Position numbers and translations under genes: made by a program | Shown here: positions 5,997 through 58,008 of the stretch, piece after piece | How positions within the stretch are numbered: the first letter of the stretch is position 1 | Layout of the letters: every line of letters begins with the position of its first letter | The notes under the pieces: model-generated | What the model saw: the letters and a program-made list of their open reading frames with translations, nothing else | Told to the model about the DNA's origin: nothing | The model's database searches: none | Assembly (NCBI GenBank): GCA_964638425.1 | Contig: CAZWYM010000001.1 | Location: 74,441-138,440, forward strand | Source: an uncultured Candidatus Saccharibacteria bacterium | GTDB lineage: Bacteria; Patescibacteriota; Minisyncoccia; Phycocordibacterales; UBA918 | Length of the DNA stretch: 64,000 nucleotides | Direction: 5' to 3'

Positions 5997-6015
5997 ACTA
6001 CGCCACTCGTGTGTA

Positions 6016-7748: not shown

Positions 7749-7993
7749 ACTGTAATTATAGAATATGAAAAGTCCCCTTCATGCATGCTGTGGGAATAAG
7801 GTTAGGTTGGTGAGAGTCGAGCTACGGTATATTTGAACCAGAGTGTCATCTTCTACATACCGAGTTCCATACCACGACAACGCTCCACGGTATGGCGGTC
7901 GTAGAGGTCGATGTAGTACTGCTTGTCTTTGAGGTGGGTTATCACCTCAATATTTTATTCCTCTTTTAAGATATTTCCAGTTGCTGAAAATAT

Positions 7994-8563
7994 CTACTGA
8001 TACACGCACAAGCTATTGAATATAGGGTACAACACCTCAAATAACTGACCAAGGATGAGTCCCATAAACGATGCGTACAGAACTAGAATTATATACGAGT
8101 CCTTACCTTCATTTGCATTGCGAAATGATTGTAGAACTCCTACTTTATCAAACTCACGCTTTGCATTAGGATCACCAAAAAGTTCTCGATACAAACGCAC
8201 TCCGAAGGTAACACCAATGAAAATAATACTGATACCAATCAAACTTTGTAGAGAATCATCTGCAACTCTCTTGCTGATATCTAGCGCGCAATACGACTGA
8301 GCAATAAAGAGAATAAGGGATAATCCTGCTCCAATCACCATCAACGATCTGAACACTGCCAGAGCTGCTAGGGACCACGTAAACAAGGAAATGAACGCGA
8401 GTCCGATCAGAGAAAAGGTAAGAAAGATTGTGCTCACCTGCTTTTCCCAGTGAGCGAATGCAAATGAAGTTAGTATTACTGTGACTACGTATAGGACAAA
8501 CAGTACAGTAAATTTTCTGTCAGTCTTCATTCTGTGCAGTATGTATTTTATCTTCTTCAGCAT
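7994..8563 (-). CDS. 5-TM membrane protein; paralogue of 21695..22243
   Basis: Start codon is 2 nt after the KAP NTPase stop. Shares IAQSYCALD / MAQTYCDLQ and C-terminal SLCVYQ / GLCMY with the other paralogue. Confidence 0.5.
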   Translation of the reverse strand: MLKKIKYILHRMKTDRKFTVLFVLYVVTVILTSFAFAHWEKQVSTIFLTFSLIGLAFISLFTWSLAALAVFRSLMVIGAGLSLILFIAQSYCALDISKRVADDSLQSLIGISIIFIGVTFGVRLYRELFGDPNAKREFDKVGVLQSFRNANEGKDSYIILVLYASFMGLILGQLFEVLYPIFNSLCVYQ

Positions 8564-8565
8564 AA

Positions 8566-11500: not shown

Positions 11501-11781
11501 AGGAGCAACTGTCTTCTTAAAGAATCTTTTTCGTATTTCCAAGCATCAAATTCAACTATTGTTCCTCCCTCAATACCCTCATCTTTGAGTAACTTAACGA
11601 TTGTACTTTTTCCTGTACCCCATCGACCAAAGAGACCGATGGTATGAACACACGTGTCGCTTTCTAAAATAGATTTAAGTGCCGGTGCAACGCTCTTGTG
11701 GTAGAAATCAAAAAAGTTTTTAGACTCCTTACCAACAGGAGCATCCTTTAAAAAATTAAACTGTTTTGATTTGTTATCCAT
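8566..11781 (-). CDS. KAP family P-loop NTPase
   Basis: Walker A GRWGTGKST. Two TM helices inserted within the NTPase domain (LPFLIIIGLFTWQVF.../SFSLALSIALII), which is the hallmark of KAP NTPases. Walker B/DdLDR-like VVVIDNLDR. Long helical C-terminal region. 15 nt downstream of hsdR. Confidence 0.8.
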   Translation of the reverse strand: MDNKSKQFNFLKDAPVGKESKNFFDFYHKSVAPALKSILESDTCVHTIGLFGRWGTGKSTIVKLLKDEGIEGGTIVEFDAWKYEKDSLRRQLLLQIAKDLQVNKNEIDKLEKELYFSLSETVGEKVSISWGYLKKVAILSLPFLIIIGLFTWQVFPDLATQWKLWAGTSFSLALSIALIIEKVLGEDFKKIIMVSPITSSKSQLSSPEQFEKSFVRILKLSKIKTNRVVVVIDNLDRVDSKVATEVLSTLKTFLEIKDVDAKGKNVVFLVPCDFEAIKKAAPSAELADEFLRKIFNVVVWTPEYIDTDIRTFVKEQIKQTGDIKNYLENDDVYLVIESAFSNNPREIKQFINNLISAVLVAFNTEVKDIVSNNIAYMAKVLVLMHKYPEAFQNLKKSWYAPEEILGTYRKVVVAEEPPFREEFENFMLETSRITVEDAEPFIYLKKPVISDLLTDDESIRLSLIEGNETTAKTHIEAETDKATLLEFIISILNKYKNHGIDVVTTIFKTQLTVLGELNLTSRDYINTVAGLLDGKVWPSFQKLPTDVIFDFVVADPNLDSRIRKNILDRYVLALSATEEFKNFNEIAIVKSILQNLVKQKQLLTNEHVLNIAQAIEEHYSVRDDILNLFVGIDDKSKFLTKKSIERIVETASLENFGTKKALLTDLSDMVIEKKVFPQLFKKLTEITIAHNQAVSGFTEEKEQFFKEALGLLVTFRVDLKLLLPADKVDFIKNIVQTFNAIPLWEKRKTLSLILIYLRSSLVDPQKTEAQQLFVQFLQNANAVAVREFFTFWKITYAQTLVTEFLPNIQPRVLSQPDFTKVIYDFSSDETRLQILDVLIAQDPLQAIEFIATLKPKDYARAEIVEKILNKAPTIGIAGRRKMYDFVADKINKNNDVAIKELVSKQVIELLNQDSLETSEVGHFFFEKADFLSIEKKREIVKSTLEFLRQPGKVLATVNSSALKVVTGFFSELQETLQKDYIFSLFCMIRDGHSQEVLDLAFSNLLTLKPSFSQYQKDYEDVASALDSWSNGGKKSVVDFLLQLKPDGRISATEKSYWEKVESHNVTEKNES

Positions 11782-11796
11782 AATTAAATTTCGAAC

Positions 11797-14700
11797 TCAG
11801 ATATTTACCGTATACACGCTAGTCTTATTATCAACATAACTGTCGTAAACATGCGAATAGACCTTCTGAGTTTTATCTTCACAGTCTTCTTCTGTATAGG
11901 TAGGCTCAGGCAAGTTGTCATACAAAAGAGCGCGGATAGTGACCTTAACATCAGCACGAGTCTCTTCCTTTTTCTTCCAGTCGAGCGCAAGTTTCTCCAT
12001 ACGAAGCTTTATTACCAACTCCTTCGCAACCACTTTCACTTGATTTACTTCGTCTGGATTGAGGTTCTCTTTTTTGAGCAAGTCAAAAATAGCCAGCTCT
12101 TCCTCAGATAGGTTCTCTGCAATTGCACGACTATCTTCCTCGCTTAGATCCTTAGCGAGCTCTACGAGCTGGTCAAAGAACGACTCAAGATCATGCGAAC
12201 CAGCGTTGTATTCATGCAACAGTCGATTGAGGCGATCAAGGAATGCCTTGCGTAGCTTATTCTTTCGAACCATCTCTTTTATCTTCTCTTCCAATTCAGC
12301 ACTTAATTCCTCAGCTTCAATATTCTTCGTGTCTGAGTCATCAAAAAACTTCTTGAGTGCTTCAAAGTCTATCTTGCTTAGGTCTTTTAGGTTTGGTTTA
12401 TCTTTAATGACGTACTCACCGGCACGGATAGAACGGTCGAGCAGATCCTCAAGATCCTTCTTAACCTGAGACACGTCAGTCTCCTCGTCGATAACTTCAC
12501 GGATACGGGAAGCAATAACCTTATACGCAGTCACCTCGTGGTAGAAGTCTTCTGCCTTTGGTTCTGGGAGAACAGCTTTGTAGTATTTGAGTGCATCACC
12601 TGAAAGTTCGAGGTAGCGTTGCTTAGTTTGTTCATCGACAAGGATGCGGTTGGTAAATACGTCGACGAGACGGATCTTTTCAATATCCTTTGCTTCGAGT
12701 AAATCATTGATATTGAGGTCGAGCAACTTGAGGAATTGTCGAGTCTGAGAAACACTTGCAAAGAGGATTTCTACTAGCTCATCCTTATCTTTAATAATCT
12801 CGTCATCACCATCATTCGAGACAGCATAAATAGCGAGTGCTTTCTGGAGGTTTCGGAACACACCAATGTAGTCAACGATAAGACCGTTAGTCTTTCCCGG
12901 ATACACACGGTTTGCACGAGCGATAGTCTGCATGAGCGTATGGTTCTTGAGTGGCTTATCAAGATAGAGCGTTGAAAGGTTTGGCACGTCAAAACCAGTC
13001 ATCCACATAGCACATACGAAGACAATCTTGAGGTTATCGGTAGGCTCTTTGAATTTAGTTTCCAAGTCCTCGTCAATCATACGAGCACGGATCGGACGCA
13101 TATCGATGTCAAACTCCTTCATGTCATCAATTTCGTTCTGGCTTTGACTGACCACTACCGCCATATCAATGTCCTCGTATTTAGATATCTGCTCACGAAT
13201 AGACTCCTTTTCGTGTTCGTCTTTTGCTTTTGAGACAGCAATATTAAGCTTTGCAATGTACCGTTGCATTTGTTCTTTTACCTTCACGTACATGCGAATA
13301 GCTGTCTTCTTATCAATAGACACGACCATCGCTTTACCGTTGTATCCCCGTGAGGTAAAGTGCGTCACAATATCTTCCGCAACCTTATTGAGACGATCTT
13401 CACGAGAGATGAGGTGGTAGAAAGTTGAAAACTCCTGCTCAAGTTTATCCTCCTCATCAGAGGTAAGGTCGTAGTAATCCATTACCTTCTCAATATCCTT
13501 CTGGATATCAGTATTAGTATTCTGAAGTTTTGGAACACGGTTCTCATAGAAGAGCGGTACTGTCGCACCGTCCTCTACAGACTGTGCAAAATTGTATGTT
13601 GAAACATAGTCTCCAAAGGTTGAGCGGGTCTTTTCTTCACCATCCATAATTGGCGTACCAGTAAAGCCAATGAATGAAGCGTTCGGAAGTGCAATACGAA
13701 GGTTTTTTGCAAAAGTATCGTATTGGGTACGATGCGCTTCGTCAGCCATTACAATAATGTCATTTCGTAGATTGAGTTCAATGGGTTCGTTGAACTTCTG
13801 AATCAAAGTGAAGATATGGCGATGATCCTCAGCAAGTAGTTCTCGGAGATTTTGAACAGAATCTGCATGCACTTCTTTATCTTTCTCAGCTCCACAGTCA
13901 ACAAAGTTCTTGTATATCTGTTTATCAAGCTCACGACGGTCAGTAATCAGCACAAAAGTGAAGTTACCATGCATCTTTCTGAATACCTTCTGCGACAAGA
14001 AGAGCATTGAGTATGATTTTCCTGATCCTTGTGTGTGCCAGAACACCCCAAGACGACCTCCATTTTCTTCACGATGTTCAATACGCTGAAAAGCTTTATT
14101 GACCCCGAGGAACTGGAAGTATCGAGCAACAATTTTGGTGAGTTCGCCACGAGAGCCATCAAATAATGTGAAGTTCTCAACAATATCTAAAAGTCGTGAC
14201 GGCTCACACGTACCACGAAGTACAATGTCGAGACTTACGCCACCCTCTTCACTCTCGTCATTAATCTTCTTCCATTCATTAAAGTGCTCATAGGCAGAAG
14301 TAAGGGTACCCACCTTACTCTCAATACCATTTGAAATAATGATAAATGCGTTACACCAAAAAAGCTGAGGAATGGTGTCCTTATAGTCACGAATATTTTC
14401 TTGGTAGGCATTGCGGAGATTCTTGTGCGAAGCTTTCAATTCAATGAGCACTAACGGCAACCCATTTACAAAACCTATAAGATCAGGGCGACGCTTGTGG
14501 AGTTCGCCAGTGATCCACATTTGAGATACGAGAAGGTAGTCGTTTTTTGAGACATCATTAAAATCAACAACTTTGATATTGATGGTCTCTATCGCTCCAC
14601 GATCGTCACGGACCTCAACTTTGACACCATCTTTTATGAGTTTATAGATATCAGCATTCGCATTTACCAAACTCATTGATGAACGGTCACGAGTAAGCTC

Positions 14701-14922
14701 ATCAATAGCTTGAATAATGGCTTCTATTGGAGCATCAGGGTTAAGTCTCTCGAGAGAGGGCTTTAGGTACTTCGCCAAAATAACCTGCCCTTGATTATCA
14801 CGACCTAGGAGTGCGTCACCCTCATCAGAGTATCCATTAATAAAATTTTTAACACCCCAAAGTTCGCCAAAGATTTTGACAGCTGTTTGCTCTATGAGGT
14901 TGTCTTCTGAAAATTCGTTCAT
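11797..14922 (-). CDS. hsdR: type I restriction enzyme R subunit (HsdR)
   Basis: SF2 helicase motifs WHTQGSGKS and DEAHR; size 1041 aa; overlaps hsdS by 4 nt. Confidence 0.9.
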   Translation of the reverse strand: MNEFSEDNLIEQTAVKIFGELWGVKNFINGYSDEGDALLGRDNQGQVILAKYLKPSLERLNPDAPIEAIIQAIDELTRDRSSMSLVNANADIYKLIKDGVKVEVRDDRGAIETINIKVVDFNDVSKNDYLLVSQMWITGELHKRRPDLIGFVNGLPLVLIELKASHKNLRNAYQENIRDYKDTIPQLFWCNAFIIISNGIESKVGTLTSAYEHFNEWKKINDESEEGGVSLDIVLRGTCEPSRLLDIVENFTLFDGSRGELTKIVARYFQFLGVNKAFQRIEHREENGGRLGVFWHTQGSGKSYSMLFLSQKVFRKMHGNFTFVLITDRRELDKQIYKNFVDCGAEKDKEVHADSVQNLRELLAEDHRHIFTLIQKFNEPIELNLRNDIIVMADEAHRTQYDTFAKNLRIALPNASFIGFTGTPIMDGEEKTRSTFGDYVSTYNFAQSVEDGATVPLFYENRVPKLQNTNTDIQKDIEKVMDYYDLTSDEEDKLEQEFSTFYHLISREDRLNKVAEDIVTHFTSRGYNGKAMVVSIDKKTAIRMYVKVKEQMQRYIAKLNIAVSKAKDEHEKESIREQISKYEDIDMAVVVSQSQNEIDDMKEFDIDMRPIRARMIDEDLETKFKEPTDNLKIVFVCAMWMTGFDVPNLSTLYLDKPLKNHTLMQTIARANRVYPGKTNGLIVDYIGVFRNLQKALAIYAVSNDGDDEIIKDKDELVEILFASVSQTRQFLKLLDLNINDLLEAKDIEKIRLVDVFTNRILVDEQTKQRYLELSGDALKYYKAVLPEPKAEDFYHEVTAYKVIASRIREVIDEETDVSQVKKDLEDLLDRSIRAGEYVIKDKPNLKDLSKIDFEALKKFFDDSDTKNIEAEELSAELEEKIKEMVRKNKLRKAFLDRLNRLLHEYNAGSHDLESFFDQLVELAKDLSEEDSRAIAENLSEEELAIFDLLKKENLNPDEVNQVKVVAKELVIKLRMEKLALDWKKKEETRADVKVTIRALLYDNLPEPTYTEEDCEDKTQKVYSHVYDSYVDNKTSVYTVNI

Positions 14923-16100
14923 GATTTTATTTCTAATTTACCGGTGACCAACTGTGGAAGAATCAAGTCACGTGACTTGATCAGTATTTCGTTCTGTTTC
15001 TCAAGTTTATACTTTAAAACAATACATTCTCGCACCTCTCTACCAAATTTATCTGTAACTTCAACTGGCGGAACATTCAATTTCTTTGTCATAAATTCAG
15101 GCCAGTGTCCTTTGTAGTCGTTGAATGAGATTAAGTTTTTTGTTGCAAAATGCAACCAAAATACATTCCTATCATCTAATGGGAGAAAAGGTAAAACATT
15201 TTGTATTGCAGAAAATGCAAACATTATTAAATTTTGATAACAAGTATGATTCGCAAATACAATTATTGGATCGTCTGTCGAAGCTACAACACTCGGCTCA
15301 TCATTATGATAGCCAATTATCCCTGACCTACCTTGATCTAAAACTGGCACTTTACCTGTAGGTTTAACAGTTTTATTTTCGTATCTCCTGCCAGCTGAGA
15401 CTCTTTTAATCACATCTTCTACTCTCTTTACTTCCCAGCCATCAGGAAGACCATCATTCCCAAATCTTATTTTTTCAGACCCAGGAAAACGAAAATTTAC
15501 AAACCATTCAGTATAAATTTTTTGAGCTAGTGTCTCAAGAATGTAGATGCGACGTTTGTTGTTTTCAATTAAATCATCAAAAAGGGACAAAGTTGAAGCA
15601 ATTGCTTTTTGAGTCTTCAATGGAAGATAATCAACATTGAGATTTTCTAGTTCACTCCCTCTGATTCCAGCTGCAGCTACCTGCATCACCAGTGATTGGG
15701 TTTTAGCTTTTCCTCTAGGAGATGAAAAGTAATAGTAGAAGAAATCAGGGTTTGCAATATCTTTTTTTAATCGCACTCTTATAAGGTGCGACTCGAAGGT
15801 TGTCTGACGTGTTGTCCCTTTAAAAATTGAACATTTACCAGCGCCTTCTGCCACTAATGACTGTCTTGCAAAAAGTAGATCGCCATCCATAAGTAGACTG
15901 TTCGCTTGCTCCTTTAACGTTAACGGGGCAAGCTCCATCCCAATAGAATCGTATATCTTGTCATACTTAAAAATCTCACCCATATTCACCATAGGAAAAC
16001 CTGAGCCTCTTACTCTCTTCGGCTTACTCACGCCATTACGAGAGGGGATTTCGTAAAGATCACCGAATCGTATTTCTTTTGTTTCTTGATTGATCTGCAT
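14919..16100 (-). CDS. hsdS: type I RM specificity subunit (HsdS), two target-recognition domains
   Basis: Position between hsdM and hsdR; two-TRD architecture with conserved central and C-terminal helices. Confidence 0.8.
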   Translation of the reverse strand: MQINQETKEIRFGDLYEIPSRNGVSKPKRVRGSGFPMVNMGEIFKYDKIYDSIGMELAPLTLKEQANSLLMDGDLLFARQSLVAEGAGKCSIFKGTTRQTTFESHLIRVRLKKDIANPDFFYYYFSSPRGKAKTQSLVMQVAAAGIRGSELENLNVDYLPLKTQKAIASTLSLFDDLIENNKRRIYILETLAQKIYTEWFVNFRFPGSEKIRFGNDGLPDGWEVKRVEDVIKRVSAGRRYENKTVKPTGKVPVLDQGRSGIIGYHNDEPSVVASTDDPIIVFANHTCYQNLIMFAFSAIQNVLPFLPLDDRNVFWLHFATKNLISFNDYKGHWPEFMTKKLNVPPVEVTDKFGREVRECIVLKYKLEKQNEILIKSRDLILPQLVTGKLEIKS

Positions 16101-16104
16101 ATTA

Positions 16105-17640
16105 CTATTCTAATCCCAAGAGATTTCGAAAATTATTCAAAATACTCTTTTCAAGAGAACGTGCCTCAACAGTAAGTTTTTCAAACTCGGTGTAAAGCTC
16201 TCTTGCAGACGTTTCAAAATCCTCATCTGAAATATCCGATTCGACAGTTCCTACATATCGACCTGGATTTAGAGAGTAACCAGTATCGGCTACTTCTTGG
16301 ATTGTAACGACCTTACAAAACCCCTTTACGTCTTCATATTTAGCTAAAGTTTGCTCGCCACGATACCTTCGTACAACGTCAGTAATCTGCTGTATTTGTT
16401 CATCAGTCCATTCACGATGTGAACGATCGACTTGGGTGAAGGTATTTCGTGCATCAATGAAAAGAATTTTGTCTTTACGCTCAAGATACCTCTTACCTTT
16501 GTCGAGAAACCAGAGAGTTACAGGAAGAGTAACGTTATAAAACATGTTTGGACCAACAGAGACCATCACATCAACAACATTGTCATCAACAAGCTTCTTA
16601 CGAATTTCTTTTTCACTATTTCCAGCATCACTGGCAGAGTTTGCCATAACAAAACCTGCACGACCTCCATCTTTGAGAGCGTTCAGGAATATTTGTATCC
16701 AGAGATAGTTACCGTTATCTGTACGTGGGAGACCGTATGAAAATCGGGGATCATCTTTGATACGTTCTTTATCAATACCATCTACATTGAATGGTGGATT
16801 TGCCATTGCAAAATCAAACTTTCCGACAGAGCGGTGTAGATCTTCGTAGTAAGTGTTTCCCTGACGTATATCTCCAGAAAGACCATGAATAGCGAGGTTC
16901 ATCTTAGCAATACGAACTGTCTGATCAGTCTTTTCTTGCCCATAAATAGAAATCTCTCGTGAGGCTTTTTCTTTTTTTCCATTTTCAAGATGACGCTTAA
17001 TGAACTCAAGGGACTGCACAAACATACCTCCTGAACCACAAGCAGGATCGTATATCTTTCCTTGATAGGGTTCAAGAATTTCTACGATCAACTTTACAAT
17101 CGATGTCGGAGTAAAGAACTCTCCACCACCCGAACCGTCTGACAGCGCGAACTTGCCGAGAAAGTATTCGTAAATAAGACCGAATGCATCGCCTTCAATT
17201 GTGTCGGGGATATGATTTAGATTTTTGAGAAGCGTAACAATTGCAGAATTGTCGAGCAGGTTGTAATTTTTCGGAAGAATGCCTGCGAGGTCTTTGTTTG
17301 ATGTTTCAATTTCCTTCATTGCATCATTAACTGCCTTTCCCATATCCGTTCCTTCTGGAAGTGCAATGAGATACGAAAAACGAGCGTGCTCAGGAACGAA
17401 AAGCACAGCTCGTGATTGATAGTCCTCAGGAGTGATAGGTCTCTGACGTTTAGAAGTAGACGTCTTTGTCTCAGCTTCAATTTCTTTCTGTGCAACAGTG
17501 AATTTTACGTCAGCGAACTTGAGAAAAATAAGACCTAGAACTGGCTCAGCAAACTCGTTGAGACGCAAAGAAGAGTTGGCTCGAAGATGATCTGCCGCCT
17601 CCCATAGTTTACTCTCAAGTTGTTTGATGTCTGATGCCAT
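16105..17640 (-). CDS. hsdM: type I RM N6-adenine DNA methyltransferase (HsdM)
   Basis: HsdM N-terminal domain, SAM motif, and catalytic NPPF (ANPPFNVDG). Confidence 0.9.
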   Translation of the reverse strand: MASDIKQLESKLWEAADHLRANSSLRLNEFAEPVLGLIFLKFADVKFTVAQKEIEAETKTSTSKRQRPITPEDYQSRAVLFVPEHARFSYLIALPEGTDMGKAVNDAMKEIETSNKDLAGILPKNYNLLDNSAIVTLLKNLNHIPDTIEGDAFGLIYEYFLGKFALSDGSGGGEFFTPTSIVKLIVEILEPYQGKIYDPACGSGGMFVQSLEFIKRHLENGKKEKASREISIYGQEKTDQTVRIAKMNLAIHGLSGDIRQGNTYYEDLHRSVGKFDFAMANPPFNVDGIDKERIKDDPRFSYGLPRTDNGNYLWIQIFLNALKDGGRAGFVMANSASDAGNSEKEIRKKLVDDNVVDVMVSVGPNMFYNVTLPVTLWFLDKGKRYLERKDKILFIDARNTFTQVDRSHREWTDEQIQQITDVVRRYRGEQTLAKYEDVKGFCKVVTIQEVADTGYSLNPGRYVGTVESDISDEDFETSARELYTEFEKLTVEARSLEKSILNNFRNLLGLE

Positions 17641-21045: not shown

Positions 21046-21694
21046 ATCCTTAAATGATAGCAGATCTGTGTTTAAAAGTGAGTTGCGTTTCTCCAGAGCG
21101 CTGCCAGACTTGGAATCTCTCTCATTACATGAGCAGTACACCTTGTCGATATTTTGTTTCCTTACATCACAAAATATCTGGCAAGGTCTTCGAGGTCAGG
21201 GACTCGTCCCGCTTTTTCTAGTTCACTTCGTTCACAAGAACGCTGGACGCGGCTCGCTGTTTCGTCGCAAGCTCCTCATATCGCTCCGCCGTTCGAGTCC
21301 CTGACTGGCTAGCAACGACAAAGGCCACAGACGTATTCACGTTTGTGGCCTGTCGATTGCTGCCAGTCAGGGACTCGAAGCTTACAGCTTCAGTTCAGGT
21401 TGTATGATATTTTCTTTCAGAAAATCTCGACAACCTCCTTAAAAGTCTCCCAGACTTTTAAGCCCCAATAAAATGCGAATGAGGCGTGTCCTAGAGCCGA
21501 ATGAGTGAGTGTGAAAGAAAATGTGTTGAGTTTCCACAGAGCGCTGGCCGTCTCGGGCTAGAACCGTAGGTGACCAAGCCCAGCTTGACGGAATCAGCTC
21601 ATTTTACACTACCTTACCGACGCGTCTCGTGCATCTCAAAAAGTGACAAAAGTGACACGGAACAGCCTGTAATAGTTACAGTCATCTGTAACTA

Positions 21695-30192: not shown

Positions 30193-30280
30193 GGGTAGAG
30201 GGCGAACCCTCTCGTACCAGTTTCCCGATACGGCCTATCAAGCAACCCCATGACGGGTTTTTTATGCTTGATAGGACTTT
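30144..30280. repeat. 15-bp direct repeat tgcttgataggactt (30144-30158 and 30266-30280) with an inverted copy at 30233-30246, in the nuclease/recombinase divergent region
   Basis: Seen directly. Confidence 0.5.
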
Positions 30281-30476
30281 TCGCCATGCCTCGGATAACT
30301 CTGAGGTTTAGGCTACTTCTATATATTCTGTTGTTGCACAATGATAACAGATTTTGCTACCGATTTACACCTTAACGCACAGATGCTGTTTTGTTAAGAG
30401 TATGACGCGAGTATGCGTCGTTTATCTAGTTCTGCATAGACTATGCACCACTGATGGTTCTGTCATTAATGGTCGT

Positions 30477-31826
30477 ATGGAAACACAAGTGATTAACAAT
30501 TTCGGTGTTAAGACGGAAGTACCGGCCACACCAGTTCGCTACGTCTTGTATGCGAGAAAAAGTACCGAAGATTCCAGCGAGAAACAAGCACTTTCAATCG
30601 ACTCTCAAGTCAAGGAAATGCTCGCAATTGCAGAGCGTGAGGGGTTAGACATAATTGATATACGGCGCGAAGCACACTCCGCAAAAGACTCCGGGCAACG
30701 ACCAGTCTTTAATGAGATTTTAAGAGATATAAAATCAGGAAGATACAACGGAGTGGCAACGTGGAGTCCGGATCGCCTAAGTCGTTGTGGGGGTGACTTA
30801 GGTTCACTTGTTGATCTTATGGATGAGAAACATTTAATTCAAATCAGGACATATGGACAGACATTCACCAATACTCCAAGTGAAAAGTTTTTACTGATGA
30901 TCCTGTGTAGCCAAGCTAAATTAGAAAATGACCAAAAAAGTATCAACGTGAAGCGAGGACTTAAGACCAGAGTAGAAATGGGATTGTGGCCTGCACCGGC
31001 ACCAACGGGGTATATCAAAGAGAAACGGATGGACAGAAAGTGCGAGACTTTGATAGATCCAGACAGAGGTCATATTATTAAGCAAGTATTTGATAAAGTC
31101 GCATACGAAAAATGGAGTGGTCGAAAAGTATATAACTGGCTAAAATTTGATTTGAACTTTAAAACAGCTGGAGGGAACAAAAATCTTTCGTTGAGCAATA
31201 TATTTGTAATACTTCAAAATCATTTCTATTACGGTGTATTTGAATATCCAAAAAAAAGTGGCAACTGGTACAAAGGAAAACATGAACCGCTTATATCAAA
31301 AGAACTCTTTGATGCAGTCCAGATGCAAGTAAAGAGTCAGTTTGTCCGATCTGAGAATAAAGAGTTTGCATTCACCAAGCTCATGACATGCGGACTCTGT
31401 GGTTCAGGTATCTGTGCTGATGAGAAGTTCAAGAAACAGAAAAATGGGAATGTGCATCGACACGTATATTACGGGTGCACCAAATCAAAAGACAAAAACT
31501 GCAGGTGTGGCTATATCAACGAAATTGATCTTCTCAAACAATTTGAAGAGCTGATGGATAAAATTGATATAGATGAGATAGGTATCAAACAAAAATTGAA
31601 AGAAGAAGTGGAACGATTCAAAAAGTTCCAGAGAGTACTACTAGGAAAACCAACTCAAGTGACCGTTGAGGAGGTTGATATACGAAATTATGCAAAATAT
31701 TTACTCAGGGAAGGTAAGGATGTAGAGAAGAGAGAATTGCTAGGATGCATAAATAATACAATATATTTAGCAAGTAAAATAATAACTCTACAGATGAGTA
31801 AAAATTGCTTTATTATTGAAGAATGA
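30477..31826 (+). CDS. large serine recombinase (resolvase/invertase catalytic domain + recombinase domain + zinc ribbon)
   Basis: YVLYARKSTEDSS...LSIDSQ catalytic region; ATWSPDRLSR; C-terminal CGLCGS...YYGC zinc ribbon. ORF opens at 30354; Met at 30477 chosen. Confidence 0.8.
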   Translation: METQVINNFGVKTEVPATPVRYVLYARKSTEDSSEKQALSIDSQVKEMLAIAEREGLDIIDIRREAHSAKDSGQRPVFNEILRDIKSGRYNGVATWSPDRLSRCGGDLGSLVDLMDEKHLIQIRTYGQTFTNTPSEKFLLMILCSQAKLENDQKSINVKRGLKTRVEMGLWPAPAPTGYIKEKRMDRKCETLIDPDRGHIIKQVFDKVAYEKWSGRKVYNWLKFDLNFKTAGGNKNLSLSNIFVILQNHFYYGVFEYPKKSGNWYKGKHEPLISKELFDAVQMQVKSQFVRSENKEFAFTKLMTCGLCGSGICADEKFKKQKNGNVHRHVYYGCTKSKDKNCRCGYINEIDLLKQFEELMDKIDIDEIGIKQKLKEEVERFKKFQRVLLGKPTQVTVEEVDIRNYAKYLLREGKDVEKRELLGCINNTIYLASKIITLQMSKNCFIIEE

Positions 31827-53710: not shown

Positions 53711-53929
53711 ATGACCAAGCTCACATTTAAACCTCTTTCGAGAGGACGGTACCGATGTAATCAAACAGGAACAATCATGACACAACGGCAAATTCTTGCC
53801 TACGTATCTGGCTTCCTTGCTACGGGACATGAAGTGAAGATTGCACCAACACACTCCCCTTCACCAAACGCACCCGCGGAGGAAAAGAAACAAGACCATC
53901 CATCAAAATACAGGACAAAACATTCATGA
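53711..53929 (+). CDS. small hypothetical protein
   Basis: 72-aa ORF with SD-like AAAGGAGA 8 nt upstream and a hairpin terminator at ~53945-53975. Confidence 0.35.
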   Translation: MTKLTFKPLSRGRYRCNQTGTIMTQRQILAYVSGFLATGHEVKIAPTHSPSPNAPAEEKKQDHPSKYRTKHS

Positions 53930-54144
53930 AAATACGACCAACGGACACTCTCAAGTGTCCGTTTCTTTATAAAAAATACCCCCGCGGTGGGTATTTATGT
54001 TTTTGACGTCAGCTCACTAATTCGCTTACGCTCAAAAGTGGCTCCTGTCCGACCTCGCGGTTTTGGCATTATAAATAGCCAAAACATCGCTCCGGTTCTC
54101 AAAGCTAAAAAACAACACGCAGGTGTTGTTTTTCTTTACGCCTT

Positions 54145-54162
54145 GAGCCATCTCCCGGGATT
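54145..54162. repeat. direct copy of the 3' 18 nt of tRNA-Thr(GGT)
   Basis: gagccatctcccgggatt is identical to 54301-54318. Confidence 0.7.
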
Positions 54163-54256
54163 GGCGTCCAACTCTAGTTCACTACGTTCACAAGAGTTAC
54201 CTGCCCGCGGTTTGCTGTTTCGTGACATTAGGAATAATGTCACTCACATCGCAAAC

Positions 54257-54276
54257 CGTTCAATCCCGGGAGATGT
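54257..54276. repeat. inverted partial copy of the tRNA-Thr(GGT) T-arm/acceptor 3' end
   Basis: ccgttcaatcccgggagatg. Confidence 0.6.
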
Positions 54277-54301
54277 CTCCCTCGTCATTATATTCCTCGT
54301 G

Positions 54302-54374
54302 AGCCATCTCCCGGGATTGAACCGGGGACCTCATCCTTACCATGGATGCGCTCTACCGACTGAGCTAAGATGGC
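54302..54374 (-). tRNA. tRNA-Thr (anticodon GGT)
   Basis: Acceptor GCCATCT/AGATGGC, D-arm GCTC AGTCGGTA GAGC, anticodon stem CATCC/GGATG with loop ATGGTAA, T-arm CCCGG TTCAATC CCGGG. Confidence 0.8.
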
Positions 54375-54518
54375 AATAGTACAGTGTGAAGGTGGTTAAA
54401 AATTCATTGACATAGGGAGTGTCAATTTAGGACCACTATAGGTATGGTCAACGCCCCTCACACTGCGATAGAAGAATACCAAAGTTTTCACTGAAAACAA
54501 AACGTATCGATACCTAGA

Positions 54519-55361
54519 TTAGAGGGAAAGTTCATTCATCCGAGCAAATGTAAATCCTTCGTCTTCCAATGCATCAAGGAGATTGGTGTAATATTCTTGA
54601 TACTTTTCGGCACTATGCGCAGGACCATCTGCAAAATCTTGTGGGTGCAACATAATAATGCAGTAGGTACTTGTCTCAAATCCAACCTTGCATGATTCCA
54701 CAATTTTTTCTGGGGTAAGAAGCGAATCTGTATCATAGTTAAATGTAGATGTGTCGTAATCGAATTGCCCTTTCCCTTCCGATGAGAGGTGTGTGAATCC
54801 GAGTTCATGGAGGGCCTCTACGGTACCTTGCGAATGTACGTTAAACGGAGGAATCCATGTCACAACAGGCTCTTCCGTAACCCCACGTAGCACTTCTAAA
54901 CCAAACAAGATGTGTTCGCGCGCTTCTTCTTTTGTGTATGTACCAAACTCTGGATGGTTGCCATATTCTCCTCCATCGTGTGTTAGCCCATGTAGTGCAA
55001 TTTCATTACGACATGCCGTGGCTTTAAGAAAAGCGCTCAGTGCTTTGTCATCATTAAGACCTAACGGAATGAGTCCTAGAGTAAGTGGTATGTCACGCTT
55101 CCCTGCATCAGTGATCATTTTTTCGCTTGTTTCCCTCCATGAGTAGGCTTGAATGTCGTCAATACGTAGTACGACTGTTTTATCACTCACCGTTCCCTCA
55201 AGTGGTATACAGGTTTTATTAATAGAAACATCGACTGGTAATACACCAGAATTACTGAAAAAAGCAACATAAATAACTCCTGCAACCATTCCTCCAAACA
55301 CGGCAATAATACCGACGAGACGGAGTGCTTGTGTAAATTGTTTTAAAAGTGACGGCTTCAT
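54519..55361 (-). CDS. polysaccharide deacetylase (NodB-homology) family protein, membrane anchored
   Basis: RIDDI (TFDDG-like) and HGLTHD motifs. Confidence 0.6.
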   Translation of the reverse strand: MKPSLLKQFTQALRLVGIIAVFGGMVAGVIYVAFFSNSGVLPVDVSINKTCIPLEGTVSDKTVVLRIDDIQAYSWRETSEKMITDAGKRDIPLTLGLIPLGLNDDKALSAFLKATACRNEIALHGLTHDGGEYGNHPEFGTYTKEEAREHILFGLEVLRGVTEEPVVTWIPPFNVHSQGTVEALHELGFTHLSSEGKGQFDYDTSTFNYDTDSLLTPEKIVESCKVGFETSTYCIIMLHPQDFADGPAHSAEKYQEYYTNLLDALEDEGFTFARMNELSL

Positions 55362-55449
55362 GAATGTACAATATATAGTATCATTCTAAAAAGACAATCA
55401 GGGAAGATTGTTTGATACTGAGGTATATATGTACTAGAGTAATTTAGTT

Positions 55450-55522
55450 GCCGTTTTAGCTCAGTTGGTAGAGCATTGCATTCGTAACGCAAAGGTCCGG
55501 AGTTCGATCCTCCGAGACGGCT
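55450..55522 (+). tRNA. tRNA-Thr (anticodon CGT)
   Basis: Acceptor GCCGTTT/AGACGGC, D-arm GCTC AGTTGGTA GAGC, anticodon loop TTCGTAA, T-arm CGGAG TTCGATC CTCCG. One A31/C39 mismatch. Confidence 0.75.
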
Positions 55523-55632
55523 CATGAAGTAAATGAGGGGTCTCGGATATATGTTTCAATATATACCTAGGATCGAAAAGGATGTCGGGATTTTCTCCCG
55601 AAAATACCATACAACCTGAACAGAATCTGTAA

Positions 55633-55656
55633 GATTCGATCCTCCGAGACGGCTCA
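55633..55656. repeat. direct partial copy of the tRNA-Thr(CGT) 3' end (22/24 nt)
   Basis: gattcgatcctccgagacggctca versus 55501-55524. Confidence 0.7.
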
Positions 55657-55734
55657 GAATAAAGCCTGGATATAGCGTTGCAAAATATGTATAGAACGGC
55701 TATACTCATCGCTATCGCATGTGTTGATACATTT

Positions 55735-55808
55735 GCGGTGGTAGCTCAACTGGTTAGAGCACCCGCCTGTCACGCGGGAGGTTGCGGGTTCGAGTCCCGT
55801 CTACCGCG
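55735..55808 (+). tRNA. tRNA-Asp (anticodon GTC)
   Basis: Acceptor GCGGTGG/CTACCGC, anticodon stem CCCGC/GCGGG with loop CTGTCAC, T-arm GCGGG TTCGAGT CCCGT, discriminator G. Confidence 0.85.
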
Positions 55809-55816
55809 CAATTAGT

Positions 55817-55848
55817 AAAACGGCAATTTCAAACGAAATTGCCGTTTT
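55817..55848 (+). terminator. hairpin terminator after tRNA-Asp
   Basis: aaaacggcaatttc aaacg aaattgccgtttt. Confidence 0.55.
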
Positions 55849-55989
55849 ACGTTATGAGCGGTAGTTTCAAATGTGTGGGACACATTTGAAAAGGGGCTCG
55901 AAGAATCTGAGCAGGCTCTGCGAAGAGTGTACTGAACAAAACAATTTCGAGATATTTTCCTTAAAATATGGGATAAGACGCCAAGGATT

Positions 55990-56185
55990 GGTCACGAGTT
56001 GCTAAGTATTATTCGAAGCAAAGCTTCTTAAATCCTAAGCACTCTCGACTCCACCTCGACTCTACCTCCTGCCCCGCAGGCAAGTCTGCGGTTTTCAATC
56101 CTTGCCGTCGAAAAACTTAGTACACAAAACACCAGATGTGTATCTGGTGTTTTGTGTACTTGTGTCGACGGCAAGGATTGAAACG
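55990..56185. repeat. structured repeat element X (~190 bp): GC motif, inverted tRNA-Met 3'-end arm, 42-bp palindrome, direct tRNA-Met 3'-end arm
   Basis: Homologous (~75% by eye) to element Y at 57372..57560. Outer arms at 56097-56112 and 56162-56184 equal the tRNA-Met 3' end. Confidence 0.65.
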
Positions 56186-56293
56186 TACCGTTTCCGTTTA
56201 GGTTGTATGATACTTTCCTCCTTCGGTCGAAAGTATCGACAACCTTTTCAATCCCTGACGTACTCTTTCCCAAAGAGTACTCCCTCGCCAGTC

Positions 56294-56316
56294 AAAAACC
56301 GCCGTGAGGCGGTTTT
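56294..56316 (-). terminator. rho-independent terminator just after the tRNA-Met 3' end
   Basis: aaaaaccgccgtgaggcggtttt. Confidence 0.6.
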
Positions 56317-56321
56317 ATTTG

Positions 56322-56394
56322 TGTCGACGGCAAGGATTGAACTTGCGACCTTATCTTTATGAGTGATATGCTCTACCAACTGAGCTACGCCGAC
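56322..56394 (-). tRNA. tRNA-Met (anticodon CAT; elongator or Ile-lysidine type)
   Basis: Acceptor GTCGGCG/CGTCGAC, D-arm GCTC AGTTGGTA GAGC, anticodon loop CTCATAA, T-arm GCAAG TTCAATC CTTGC. Confidence 0.75.
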
Positions 56395-56603
56395 AGGTGA
56401 ATGCGCGAGCGAAATAAGAATATGTATATTCTTATTTTCGAGCAAATGAAATCTGTATGGTTCCCCTACGAGTGAGGAAGGGGGTGAAAATTTATTTTCA
56501 CCCATTTTCCGAACGAAGTCGGCGGAAGCTTTGCTTACACCGACATACACATAATGTGCGTGTGCAAGAATACCATTAGATATCCTTCCCTTCAACCTTC
56601 TTA

Positions 56604-57281
56604 TTATCGCATTGATAAAATTGTTTCCGCCTTCACTATATCTTCTGGGTATCCTATTGGAATCCAGAATTGCTCCTCAACTACCGCAACAGGATACTCC
56701 CGCGCATACCGCTCAATCACTTCAGTGAGATAATACTCGCCATTGACTGGATTTGCTGGTTCAAATTGAAATATACGGTCATCGAGAACCATGACTCCTG
56801 TCGAAACGAGATTAGAAGGAGGGTGTGTCGGTTTTTCAACAATTTCTGAAAGTGTTCCATCTGGGTTACGCACGACTACTCCGAAACGCTCTGGTGTATC
56901 ACTTGTTTTTGCGAGCATACCCCGACTGTATGATGCGACGCGTGCAATATCATCCTTGCCGTGGATATCGTCGGCAAACATAAAAAGGAAACGTCCCTTC
57001 AGAAGGTCTTTACATAACCAAAGTGCTCGCGCTGTTCCATCTTGCTCAACTTGCTCGATATAGGTTACCTTCTTCCCTTGGAATTCAGAACCGTAATATT
57101 CACGGATTTGGTCACCTAGATAACCCACCACAATGATAAGCTCGTCGACAGCGCTCGGGAGCGCATCAATGATGTGATTGAGGAGTGGCTTCCCCGACAC
57201 AGGAACGAGTGGCTTAGGAGTATTTTCTGTAAGCGGGCGGAGACGTGTCCCCTTTCCTGCTGCTAAAATGACGCATTGCAT
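56604..57281 (-). CDS. sugar-phosphate nucleotidyltransferase (NTP_transferase family)
   Basis: N-terminal VILAAGKGTRLRPLT signature. The track ORF extends to 57596; ATG at 57279-57281 chosen. Confidence 0.75.
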   Translation of the reverse strand: MQCVILAAGKGTRLRPLTENTPKPLVPVSGKPLLNHIIDALPSAVDELIIVVGYLGDQIREYYGSEFQGKKVTYIEQVEQDGTARALWLCKDLLKGRFLFMFADDIHGKDDIARVASYSRGMLAKTSDTPERFGVVVRNPDGTLSEIVEKPTHPPSNLVSTGVMVLDDRIFQFEPANPVNGEYYLTEVIERYAREYPVAVVEEQFWIPIGYPEDIVKAETILSMR

Positions 57282-57371
57282 ATACTCGTATTTATAGCAT
57301 GAAAGCATAAAACAAAAAAACACCCCATACGGGGTGCTTTTTGTAACGTGTTGCGAGAGGTGTGGAATCGA

Positions 57372-57560
57372 CATCGAGTTCCTAAGTATTTTTCGCAAAC
57401 TCAAAATACTAAGGACTTGTCGGCTCACCTCGGCACTTACCCCCGCCCCGCGGGCGTGCCTGCGGTCGTTCGATTCCAGACATTTTCGCAGAGAATACAA
57501 AAAGATCTGCATAATGCAGATCTTTTTGTATTCTTGTTGCGGAGCCTGGAATCGAACCAG
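57372..57560. repeat. structured repeat element Y; second copy of the X family
   Basis: T-arm-like inverted arms gttcgattccag (57468-57479) and ctggaatcgaac (57547-57558) around a 41-bp perfect palindrome (57493-57533). Confidence 0.65.
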
Positions 57561-58008
57561 GGTCTGGAGGTTATGCTTACCTGCTACAATTTTCATTGCT
57601 CAAGCGATAGCTTGATTTGTGGTCTGGACTATACCTTCATCTTTCTTAAAAAAGTTAAGATGCCTACCATCTAGTCTCTACACCTTCCCATCACTTTGAT
57701 GGGCTTGGCTCGGTATTGCCATGTGCTATACGCACGAAGGTTTCACCGAATTTGGCAGGATTCCATAGAGCATTTCTGCTTTACGAGCCCAATTGAGCCT
57801 CCCGAGGTACCTCTCCTCTACTCCGCGATGATGTGTTTGCTTACCTCTCCTCGTCCCTACTTGAACAAGTGAGGGCGGAAGAATGAATTTATTCATTCTC
57901 TACGTACGAACGCAGTTCAAGCAAGCTTTGCTTACAGGACCTGTTCTTCTACTCACCTCAAAATAATGAGTACACATGAATGTACCGCATGTTTTGAATA
58001 TACGCAAA

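Follow-up and report, generated by a model that had tools for sequence, protein, structure and literature searches.

The question raised by this locus is why a tRNA-Thr(GGT) gene should be followed closely by two further copies of its own 3′ end, one direct and one inverted. The preliminary description left two answers, either a relic of integrase-mediated insertion at the tRNA gene or a miniature structured element transcribed as a trailer of the tRNA. The whole stretch of DNA analysed here, 64 kb in length, will be referred to as the window, and its relevant features are collected in Table 1.

The tRNA gene is recovered by ARAGORN and also by Rfam (54302-54374, 65.4 bits), confirming the assignment made earlier. 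Both copies of its 3′ end are real, and are slightly longer than first described. The direct copy, originally given as 18 nt at 54145-54162, is an exact repeat of 20 out of 20 nt between 54144-54163 and 54300-54319 (TGAGCCATCTCCCGGGATTG on the plus strand). In tRNA terms, it runs from the T-loop base C56 to position +2 after the discriminator. The inverted copy, thought to include one indel, is 22 nt long with one mismatch (95% complementary to 54301-54322), and stretches to about 24 nt if one indel is allowed. A 19-mer of the tRNA end, with up to three mismatches, is found exactly three times in the window, compared to 0.00 expected from 100 shuffles. No additional tRNA or pseudo-tRNA is detected by ARAGORN or Rfam in 54100-54300, and the distal copy covers C56 to the 3′ end only.

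The 156-nt unit behind the tRNA is made up of a spacer (s), an antisense arm (B), a conserved core (I) and a distal sense copy (A′), following the tRNA's own end (A). The 3′ part of the spacer resembles the spacer of another unit, of type B, behind tRNA-Thr(CGT) (..TAAATGAGG). The 9-bp-stem hairpin noted previously (GTGACATTA-GGAA-TAATGTCAC) is present, and is the variable hairpin of the core. The GC-rich motif (CCTGCCCGCGG) is present as well, in an internal loop of the core. However, its supposed sharing with two other repeat elements (X and Y) is only loose, the motif having a single occurrence in the window at up to one mismatch, and the corresponding junction differs in sibling copies (for example GCCGCGTCCAGCG or TGCGGGGCAGG). 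The terminator reported at about 54108-54135 is a real hairpin (AAAAACAACAC-GCAG-GTGTTGTTTTT), kept in the relative L207, which a simple terminator scan misses because the T-run sits within the stem. The unit contains no ORFs.

Table 1. Positions of the tRNA-Thr(GGT) locus, the parts of its 156-nt unit and the sister units in the window.
Feature	Position	Strand	Basis or remark
tRNA-Thr(GGT) gene	54301-54374	-	ARAGORN; without encoded CCA
Promoter-like TTGACC/TAAATT of tRNA-Thr(GGT)	54451-54424		Promoter scan
A, proximal repeat copy (the tRNA's own end, C56 to discriminator +2)	54300-54319	-	CAATCCCGGGAGATGGCTCA on the tRNA strand
s, 20-nt spacer, hairpin-free	54280-54299	-	CGAGGAATATAATGACGAGG; read from sequence
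B, antisense arm	54258-54279	-	GAGACATCTCCCGGGATTGAAC; reverse complement of tRNA 3′ end, 1 mismatch
I, conserved type-A core	54164-54257	-	CM R1, covariation, fold
P1 helix of core	54208-54215 with 54251-54258
Variable hairpin of core	54222-54243
GC-rich internal loop of core	54200-54210
m hairpin of core	54172-54196		CTCTTGT-GAACGTAGTGA-ACTAGAG
A′, distal exact sense copy of tRNA end	54144-54163	-	Pairs with B, closing the core
Resident terminator-like hairpin of the tRNA gene	54108-54133	.	Directly after the tRNA in L207
Second type-A element, in tandem	54000-54108	-	CM R1 E=3.5e-11; common to L207; outside seed
Type-B unit behind tRNA-Thr(CGT)	55524-55657	+	Absent in L207
tRNA-Met(CAT) trailer	55975-56320	-	Repeats read; CM R1 E=6e-6
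Type-A2 unit behind intron-containing tRNA-fMet	57330-57545	-	CM R1 E=3e-4; absent in L207
Orphan array, no tRNA gene, tRNA-Gln-like arms	21060-21480	-	CM R1 E=1.4e-21

The unit belongs to a family, type A, which is defined in the present analysis by a core matching CM R1, antisense and sense copies of the upstream sequence, and a co-oriented tRNA or terminator. At this locus the core matches R1 (54155-54269, E=6e-17), antisense and sense arms are both present, and the co-oriented tRNA ends 32 nt upstream of the match. A search of 100 metagenome contigs or loci gives 100 matches, about 55 of them strong. A same-strand tRNA ends within 400 nt upstream, mostly at 54-115 nt, in 34 of these 55, with 6 further strong matches on contigs too short for the linkage to be judged. 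Some of the matches scored as tRNA-less do follow a tRNA that was missed by ARAGORN, for example an intron-containing one. Strong matches to type-A cores are linked to 17 tRNA species, and the tRNA-linked copies are all in the orientation of the tRNA.

The core, of about 95 nt, is a three-way junction. Its limbs are the P1 helix, which contains tandem G.A pairs, a variable hairpin, and a long hairpin with an invariant GAAC-GNA-GTGA motif as its cap. In the alignment, 88.6% of the core pairing cells are paired, compared to 67.9% in shuffles (0/500). Compensatory changes are observed for 31 of the 36 core pairs, and slid controls give 34-44%. The sense strand has the more stable fold in all elements compared (23/23). 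The ratio of G.U to A.C mismatches is 75:67 overall, 12:2 in P1 and 15:17 in the arms. At the locus itself, the 201-nt trailer folds at -84.5 kcal/mol (z = -8.8). There is no terminator between tRNA-Thr(GGT) and the unit, and the unit has none of its own; transcription of the tRNA is therefore predicted to run on through the unit, giving a very stable trailer that 3′ processing would cut off. In this respect, the second of the two original suggestions, a miniature structured element in the trailer, is essentially right.

No known family was found to account for the element. Rfam gives nothing for it at gathering thresholds over the whole window; with E values up to 10, only tRNAs and spurious miRNA hairpins appear over 53900-56450, and no family for the element is found in the L207 trailer. 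Hammerhead and other ribozyme cores were rejected by eye and with Rfam. A literature search found no description of the family, and a repeat family located behind many Patescibacteria/CPR tRNA genes has apparently gone undescribed.

Parts of the core are found in other settings. The m hairpin also occurs around start codons, where it has local arms, and the tandem G.A motifs and GNA-capped hairpin of the core are also found ahead of start codons and in intergenic regions of phages. A scan of viral contigs for the m-hairpin loop returned mostly chance matches; a few phage intergenic hairpins share the loop, and none of these phage intergenic matches is linked to a tRNA. The occurrence of the invariant GAAC-GNA-GTGA hairpin in gene 5′ regions as well as between phage genes suggests a putative common binding partner.

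These properties bring up the possibility that the unit is a functional structured RNA, or a protein-binding RNA or ssDNA module, of tRNA trailers and terminators, its spread among tRNAs being secondary. The covariation of all its helices, the invariant loop bases, the consistently more stable sense strand and the G.U excess in P1 would be expected of such a module, as would the fixed orientation and the recurrence of the m hairpin around start codons and in phage contigs. The antisense arm B is also more constant than A′, and the copy in the window would have to be transcribed together with its tRNA. However, most loci have a terminator between the tRNA and the core, which would leave the core poorly transcribed, the overall G.U to A.C ratio is balanced, and Rfam has no match. 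Overall, we consider a primarily functional RNA possible but unlikely. Under this proposal the core could be a binding site or a processing or termination device; as to the arms, the core would need a closing helix, and B would extend the terminator stem into the tRNA end.

Five type-A cores are found by CM R1 in the 64-kb window, the one at this locus and four others, three of which are outside the seed, and cassettes that duplicate the tRNA end lie behind five of the six tRNA genes. The left boundary of the duplication differs between the element types, lying at C56 in type A and at T54 in type B. In the type-B unit behind tRNA-Thr(CGT), the antisense arm is interrupted by a small hairpin and is accompanied by an AAGGATG..CAACCT hairpin and a 17-nt linker; a sense copy of the tRNA end, exact over 22 nt, comes last. 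The trailer of tRNA-Met(CAT) contains, in order, a terminator, an antisense arm, a type-B hairpin, a 26-nt sense copy (56157-56182), hairpin 2, antisense arm 2 (56094-56111), a type-A2 core (55983-56103) and a partial sense copy 3. For the tRNA-fMet unit, the order is a long palindromic hairpin, an antisense arm, the core (57362-57479), a diverged sense copy and the resident terminator. The orphan array consists of a type-B hairpin, a sense copy, a hairpin, an antisense arm, a type-A core (21198-21302), another sense copy and a second type-B hairpin. Tandem arrays exist, and so do decaying orphans with no tRNA; they resemble selfish DNA, which speaks against an RNA kept for its function.

The locus was compared with those of relatives. 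In L207, which has the same synteny (75% identity in the adjacent protein), tRNA-Thr(GGT) is followed directly by the same terminator and then by the second element. The two sequences differ by a 156-nt indel bounded exactly by the repeat. The site is empty in L005 too, and in L004 the same tRNA carries a core of a different subfamily, which argues for independent gain. The comparison shows that the 156-nt unit was gained in the lineage of the window, between the tRNA and its resident terminator; the tandem element beyond the terminator is older. Units are also lacking in L207 behind tRNA-Thr(CGT), tRNA-Met (A2) and tRNA-fMet, so that four units differ between the window and this relative. Some tRNAs, and whole relatives, have no element. 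Such turnover and patchiness are again difficult for the functional RNA, while the units of tRNA-Asp and tRNA-Met, which are retained between genomes 59-75% identical in the adjacent protein, support it.

The chance that the copies are accidental or an assembly artefact is close to nil. The sequence comes from a metagenome-type assembly. The only independent assemblies of the strain are 1.2-kb Logan contigs that end inside both flanking tRNAs, where short-read contigs break, and a look-up with prfB for further assemblies of the strain gave no match. On the other hand, chance predicts 0.00 matches, and more than 100 independent contigs, taken from many samples, show this architecture too, which makes an artefact unlikely; the structure is also consistent in the NCBI MAGs L004 and L207.

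A direct repeat that starts in the T-loop and continues past the 3′ end, and that exactly bounds presence and absence, fits an att core and a site-specific route. The corresponding explanation is a miniature integrative element or its relic, in which a tyrosine-type recombinase supplied from elsewhere joins a small DNA to the T-loop of the tRNA. Such a block is said to be the classical identity block of T-loop-type tRNA integration, as Williams reportedly set out in 2002. The dependence of the left boundary on the element type and the tandem arrays agree with this explanation, as do the two hairpins of many loci, T1 before B and T2 (the terminator) after A′, which are unrelated to each other, as in an inserted cassette. 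The inserted DNA may be a circle of folded ssDNA in which the B:A stem imitates a duplex tRNA end, in the manner of CTX phage and integron attC. The tRNA would then be completed by the A brought in, with its former end displaced to become A′.

There are several difficulties with this explanation, however. Each tRNA species would need a matching element, yet the cores of one genome are nearly identical across different tRNAs. The same core is found behind 17 tRNA species with arms matching each, at variance with the tie of attP and attB to one tRNA. The antisense arm is constant, and att scars have none; arms may be non-tRNA sequence; and A′ starts are at times chimeric or truncated. No relative bearing an integrase is present in about 0.8 Mb of fetched loci. 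A Pfam search of about 50 window ORFs finds no tyrosine integrase, transposase, reverse transcriptase or Nop-domain protein, and the sole recombinase of the window is of the large serine type (30354-31823, 23 kb away). Large serine recombinases are not known to make 20-nt repeats. Circles of double-stranded DNA as small as 130-160 bp would, moreover, be sterically unfavourable. We therefore regard an integrase relic, the first of the two original suggestions, as improbable.

The arms provide further information on how the unit was formed. In every copy, two arms border the core, one antisense and one sense, and both are copies of the sequence lying upstream at that locus. The antisense and sense arms are 8-22 nt long, locus-specific and outside the family consensus. 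Exact sense copies are 12-59 nt in length; for many different tRNAs they start 19 nt before the tRNA end, and they begin about 9 nt after the m hairpin. In one subfamily, the arms instead take in trailer and the final 3-6 nt of the tRNA, or consist of non-tRNA sequence adjoining a terminator. The arm columns vary freely and covary, 10 out of 10 pairs being changed on both sides. The start of A′ is chimeric or shifted in L181, L100 and L117, and A′ is truncated or absent in some copies. Such sloppy starts would fit microhomology better than a precise recombinase. There is also a hint that A′ may follow changes of the tRNA, by conversion or re-creation, as B decays.

Two possible sources of the arms were rejected. 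The antisense arm is not a copy of the tRNA 5′ strand, as in a degenerate tRNA, for it contains the complement of the discriminator and later bases, and where tRNA-Met has a G.U pair, it agrees with the 3′ strand. The mature tRNA is also not the template or primer: B contains the complement of trailer bases and never that of CCA, and was therefore copied from the gene or its precursor.

The latter result bears on a retro-element-like (SINE-like) or guide-bearing mobile RNA, with B as the guide or primer-binding site and a remote reverse transcriptase that copies the RNA, re-inserts it and rewrites the arms. Mature tRNA could serve it as neither primer nor template. Otherwise, the strict polarity with transcription would suit this proposal, as would the complementarity of B to the 19-22 3′-terminal nt of the tRNA (comparable to a primer-binding site), the position of the arm boundaries at landmarks of tRNA folding (the elbow at C56 and the point where the acceptor helix starts), and the alternation of constant spacer, variable arm, constant core and variable arm, which resembles a scaffold with programmable segments. 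On the other hand, the window has no reverse transcriptase, antisense templates would have to exist for the core to be copied in sense orientation, and poly(A) and other hallmarks of retro-elements are absent. We find this proposal very doubtful.

The reading that we tentatively prefer, at a little less than an even chance, is that the 156-nt stretch is a locus-adapted copy of a widespread, non-autonomous, hairpin-forming repeat family of Patescibacteria (type A), with arms copied from the local sequence by copy choice. The arms were likely written from local DNA as the unit formed, by copy-choice or fold-back DNA synthesis. In this process, a nascent strand would fold back at a hairpin and copy its own 5′ flank to produce B, switch to another copy of the core through short AAC/GTT and CGAAT microhomologies in the T-loop, and then return to the local template to produce A′. 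Copy choice at T-loop microhomologies would explain why the boundaries are located in the only sequence common to all tRNAs. This template-switch route of spread is purely what we infer. We regard the unit mainly as DNA of a selfish or structural kind, which may incidentally affect termination and processing.

Several observations are not readily accommodated by copy choice. The tRNA-Thr(GGT) copy has no hairpin between A and B to prime the fold-back, and its 20-nt spacer is unstructured. The unrelated T1 and T2 hairpins fit the insertion of a ready-made cassette better than a re-copied local terminator. The strong covariation and invariant loops suggest that the fold is selected for a function (protein binding, or RNA or ssDNA recognition) and not merely tolerated, and the fixed orientation relative to the tRNA is not obviously predicted by a palindrome process purely at the DNA level. 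The evidence on the strand is mixed, the sense strand folding better in 23/23 elements while the G.U to A.C mismatches are nearly even overall.

A new kind of mobile element, whose ends are re-written from the target at each insertion, is quite improbable but would unite a constant spacer and core with programmable arms. A hairpin-recognising enzyme would bind the GAAC-GNA-GTGA and G.A motifs, and the antisense arm would address tRNA 3′ ends. Candidate enzymes are a polymerase or primase, a reverse transcriptase and an HUH/Nop-type protein, and the wider targets of the antisense arm could include the 5′ flank of terminators or start codons. If true, the element would correspond, in bacteria, to SINEs linked to tRNAs or to guides of the bridge-RNA type. 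An autonomous version, with 5′ and 3′ core modules split by an ORF, was not found in the roughly 0.8 Mb of fetched loci.

If the preferred reading is true, tRNA genes of Patescibacteria commonly bear cassettes that duplicate their 3′ ends in both orientations. Duplications of this type are routinely read as integration scars or att sites, and calls of island and prophage boundaries in CPR may be in error. The repeats may hamper short-read assembly near tRNA genes; a link to the contig breaks seen here is possible. A covarying core that gains its arms from the landing site would represent an unrecognised copy-choice mode of spread or a programmable, guide-like element.

A comparison will be made here with known systems. 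TIGR arrays are present in CPR bacteria and phages, with 9-nt spacers, CCA/UG boxes and an adjoining Tas gene; the tandem units have two 8-12-nt repeats and the Tas protein has a Nop domain (PMC12045711). Like the type-A element, TIGR and IS110 bridge RNAs are non-coding and structured, and each unit has two variable segments, directed at the two strands of one DNA target (PMC12045711). In comparison, type-A units are single or few, their arms are 8-22 nt long and fully complementary to each other, and the motifs differ. By the published description (PMC12045711), a TIGR array is rejected on architecture, and no Nop-domain gene is found in the window.

Like att blocks and CIME-type derivatives, the type-A unit has a direct repeat of the tRNA end that runs from the T-loop past the 3′ end and leaves the tRNA intact, and its presence and absence are bounded by the repeat. 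CIME-type elements are integrase-less derivatives of insertions at tRNA genes. They differ from the type-A unit in that the insert here is only 156 nt, the antisense arm is constant, non-tRNA sites are also occupied, the same interior is found at 17 or more tRNA species with matching arms, and no integrase-bearing parent was found in the fetched loci.

The family also resembles MITEs, REPs and REPINs, being small, non-coding, multi-copy, hairpin-forming, intergenic, often beside terminators and patchy in distribution. Its copies are dispersed and polymorphic for insertion (five in 64 kb, with L207 and L005 empty at the locus). In MITEs and REPINs, however, the consensus of the element includes its inverted repeats, and insertion duplicates a short target of fixed length. 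In the type-A family each locus has its own inverted arms, copied from 8-22 nt of the DNA upstream, the "duplication" measures 12-59 nt, and there are neither conserved terminal inverted repeats nor a fixed short target duplication. REPs and REPINs have a short conserved palindrome mobilised by a RAYT (Y1 HUH) transposase. The m hairpin is REP-like, and RAYT is absent from the window, which covers about 64 kb of the genome.

Bacterial class C group II introns insert right after terminator hairpins, with a guide that pairs to the upstream exon. The type-A site is likewise just downstream of a terminator or tRNA end, and the internal B is complementary to the upstream sequence. Unlike these introns, the element has a core of only about 95 nt, no Rfam intron match, no intron-encoded protein, and a downstream sense copy. 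The variants of the Neurospora Mauriceville retroplasmid are small elements that gain tRNA sequence by template switching and integrate at tRNA genes, so coming to lie beside the tRNA gene with duplicated tRNA sequence on their flanks. In contrast to the type-A element, the captured tRNA there includes CCA and the retroplasmid has its own reverse transcriptase.

Template-switch (quasipalindrome) mutagenesis, fold-back synthesis and MMBIR are, to our knowledge, sporadic mutational events, and we know of no case where they spread a conserved family to specific sites. They share with the type-A unit an inverted copy of the 5′ flank placed 3′ of a hairpin and followed by a return to the template, as well as junctions at microhomologies and the succession of an inverted copy, a foreign segment and a direct copy.

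The tRNA-Thr(GGT) locus carries a member of a widespread Patescibacteria family of tRNA-trailer hairpins with locus-derived arms, which supports and extends the miniature structured trailer element suggested in the preliminary description. ARAGORN and Rfam both place the tRNA gene at this locus, and CCA is not encoded in it. The reported copies of the tRNA 3′ end are real, and their positions were correct within 1-2 nt. The tRNA end (A) is followed by an antisense arm (B), a conserved interior or core, and a distal sense copy (A′). A 19-mer of this end occurs three times in the window, with 0.00 expected. The predicted fold of the 201-nt trailer (-84.5 kcal/mol, z = -8.8) is a three-way junction closed by a B:A′ stem. 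The claimed recurrence of its GC-rich motif in other repeats holds only loosely, because the exact 11-mer occurs once in the window; the other repeats carry looser GC-rich equivalents.

Features of the tRNA-Thr(GGT) locus and of related loci in the window
Feature	Position	Strand or direction	Remarks
tRNA-Thr(GGT)	54301-54374	minus	ARAGORN; Rfam 65.4 bits
A, tRNA end CAATCCCGGGAGATGGCTCA	54319-54300	tRNA direction	
Spacer between A and B		tRNA direction	20 nt, unstructured
B GAGACATCTCCCGGGATTGAAC	54279-54258	tRNA direction	reverse complement of tRNA end, one mismatch
Interior between B and A′			94 nt
A′, second CAATCCCGGGAGATGGCTCA	54163-54144	tRNA direction	exact
Hairpin AAAAACAACAC-CTGC-GTGTTGTTTTT	54133-54108	tRNA direction	10 nt beyond A′
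tRNA-Thr(CGT)	55450-55523	+	unit-bearing
tRNA-Asp			unit degenerate
tRNA-Met			unit-bearing
tRNA-fMet(CAT)	57545-57835	-	unit-bearing; anticodon loop split by group I intron (57611-57805; Rfam RF00028, 72 bits); missed by ARAGORN
LOOT RNA	30197-30314	-	RF03000, 94.8 bits
Large serine recombinase	30354-31823	+	Resolvase + Recombinase + Zn ribbon

Repeat finding over the whole window, followed by reading of the loci found, places at least one unit of the same layout behind five of the six tRNA genes, tRNA-Gln being the only one without. At tRNA-Met(CAT), a 26-nt copy of its own 3′ end lies 159 nt downstream, and interior sequence is common to several tRNA trailers and a locus at 21 kb. The interiors are of two types, type A (that of the tRNA-Thr(GGT) element) and type B, an AAGGTTG...CAACCT hairpin with a 17-nt linker. 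Both have the antisense arm 5′ and the sense copy 3′ of the interior, the latter starting at T-loop base C56 in type A and T54 in type B. Five matches to a covariance model of the type-A core (R1) lie in the window, every one on the minus strand and three of them outside the model seed.

Several other features were observed here. The ORF at 56604-57596 has a spurious N-terminal extension across the tRNA-fMet 3′ exon and its type-A2 unit. The tRNA-Asp terminator hairpin (55801-55864) is lengthened, with the acceptor 3′ strand CTACCGCG pairing with downstream AGCGGTAG. An orphan array at 21060-21480 (one type-A and two type-B elements, tRNA-Gln-like arms, no tRNA gene) lies at the left edge of a putative mobile island; similar orphans lie next to decayed tRNA remnants in fetched loci L103 and L146. 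This region (~21.7-31.8 kb), which looks like an integrated mobile island, also encodes a caspase-domain protein, a LexA/S24-like repressor, a DNA methylase and an SNase, and the LOOT RNA is immediately upstream of, and divergent from, the serine recombinase gene. At 5500-17640, a complete type I restriction-modification system (HsdR, HsdS, HsdM) is accompanied by a Fic protein and a 1071-aa KAP-family NTPase in an accessory or defence cluster, and GC content falls to 0.37 between 8 and 12 kb.

The exact pattern of the capping hairpin (m, 25-27 nt) is found at at least 120 loci in the metagenome collection. By this pattern, 47 copies follow a same-strand tRNA at a distance of 9-417 nt, and 15 of them have an exact 12-59-nt repeat, which starts mostly 17-19 nt before the tRNA end (3 nt in one case) and resumes 8-12 nt past the m motif. 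An alignment of 23 elements led to a proposed four-part structure: besides the arms, it comprises P1, which contains a conserved CGGAG/CGAG tandem G.A, together with a variable hairpin and an extended hairpin that has a GAAC-GNA-GTGA cap. The core covaries, with compensatory changes in 31 of the 36 proposed pairs. Paired cells amount to 88.6%, compared to 67.9% in shuffles (0/500 as high) and 34-44% in slid controls, supporting the structure. R1 yielded 100 hits across 100 metagenome loci, 55 of them strong. In 34 of these 55, a tRNA on the same strand lies no more than 400 nt upstream, six are on contigs too short to judge and 15 have no called tRNA; the tRNA-linked matches span 17 tRNA species. 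Some of the 15 are behind intron-containing tRNAs that ARAGORN misses, and others are orphans with tRNA-like arms, adjoining decayed tRNA remnants.

The elements occur in association with tRNAs and terminators and share their orientation. The order at most loci is tRNA (A), a terminator hairpin (T1), B, core, A′ and a second terminator (T2), an arrangement in which A-T1-B forms one long palindrome. Both arms consist of local sequence. B, absent from very few copies and often interrupted by a small lineage-specific hairpin, is the true reverse complement of the tRNA 3′ strand, including the discriminator and trailer bases and never CCA. Its source is thus the gene or precursor rather than mature tRNA or the tRNA 5′ strand. 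A′ is bimodal, either exact or matching just 7-13 of 19 nt, with chimeric starts in some copies. In one subfamily, the arms are confined to the final 3-6 nt of the tRNA and ~9 nt of trailer, and outside tRNA sites the arms match the flank of a terminator. The m hairpin alone also occurs just 5′ of start codons of unrelated genes, where an inverted copy of the start region, 8-12 nt long, flanks it. Having a 3′ flank that copies the 5′ flank is thus common to these hairpin modules in general.

The m hairpin was also observed in other settings. A second family, GAAGTACTCTTGTGGTGCGACATTGTT-m-AACAAGAAGTACTCTTGTGGTG, has its own ~20-nt flanking direct repeat (for example L143:930-1050, L140:9880-9990, L101:2400-2520), and in L101, L112, L157 and L174 lies 10 nt upstream of an opposite-strand tRNA-Arg(GCG). 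The start-codon hairpins are on the opposite strand (L134, L147, L148, L154, L178, L182, L206 and others; genes rplL, rplX, nusA, ppsA and others), with the conserved sequence CCCYGTKAAAT following as a tail; the stem would bury the start codon. In viral contigs (L052, L067, L077, L080 at ~14100-14250, L009, L012, L068), intergenic phage hairpins share the GAACGNAGTGA loop; these and the related CGACCGAAGGGAG mini-hairpins (C-GNA-G triloops) are located between promoter-like sequences and genes and are not linked to tRNAs.

Units have been gained and lost between relatives. Searching with the adjacent DUF2334/deacetylase protein, to which the identities below refer, gave MAGs of Candidatus Paceibacteria and Patescibacteria that have the window's gene order (deacetylase, tRNA-Thr(GGT), prfB, ftsE, ftsX, pyrG). 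In L005 (54%), the terminator directly follows tRNA-Thr(GGT), with no unit between. L004 (59%) has a type-A unit there with an exact 92-nt direct repeat, and type-B plus type-A units in its tRNA-Asp trailer. In the closest relative, L207 (75%), tRNA-Thr(GGT) is followed directly by AAGCGTTT and then by the window's terminator and second type-A element, so that alignment gives a clean 156-nt indel with the repeat as its edges. L207 also lacks the units behind tRNA-Thr(CGT), tRNA-Met (A2) and tRNA-fMet, while older units are common to both. The A-T-B palindrome at tRNA-Asp is present in L004 and L207 as well, and this part is therefore old and conserved. Since the cores at tRNA-Thr(GGT) differ in subfamily (..CGGGCAGGTAA-m-TTGGACGC in the window versus ..GGTCGGGGAGGAAG-m-ACTTGACC in L004), independent gain of the 156-nt unit in the window lineage appears more likely than loss in L207. 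With units recurring in these MAGs, we give virtually no weight to an artefact. The L207 tRNA-Thr(GGT) (L207:11543-11818) has a ~200-nt insertion in the anticodon loop after CATGGTAA, matching no Rfam family at E<=1, with two small unannotated ORFs just upstream (L207:10939-11549); the window copy has no intron.

We tentatively favor, at somewhat less than even odds, a non-autonomous element with arms made by copy-choice synthesis. Local DNA would serve as template for the arms: synthesis would fold back at a hairpin, switch to another core via AAC/GTT and CGAAT T-loop microhomology, and then return to the local template. Copy-choice would explain locally matching arms, T-loop boundaries, spread across tRNA species, variable repeat length, tandem arrays and sloppy junctions. 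However, the tRNA-Thr(GGT) copy lacks a hairpin between A and B, the strand test is equivocal, and a search of the fetched loci for an autonomous version found none. Pfam across ~50 window ORFs found the large serine recombinase beside the LOOT RNA and no tyrosine integrase, transposase, reverse transcriptase or Nop-domain protein. The strict orientation and invariant motifs also count against copy-choice, suggesting a specific protein partner or RNA-level role; a functional RNA or protein-binding module, the strongest rival, is less likely than copy-choice. T1 and T2 are often unrelated, which is more like cassette insertion. A miniature site-specific integrative element is rather improbable, and a retro- or guide-type element is more doubtful still.

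No Rfam family matches the element, its architecture is not that of the TIGR arrays described in PMC12045711, and full-text literature searches found no description of such a family, which is undescribed as far as could be found. Taken by itself, the direct repeat resembles a T-loop-type att identity block. For an integrase scar, one would expect a parent that carries an integrase, a single tRNA for each element family and no antisense arm; all three defining expectations fail here, the antisense arm being present, and the integration relic proposed earlier is not supported. MITEs and REPINs are similar in size, copy number and hairpin nature, but differ from the type-A element in their conserved terminal repeats and fixed target duplication. 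The evidence for the family and its anatomy is solid, and both are unusual.
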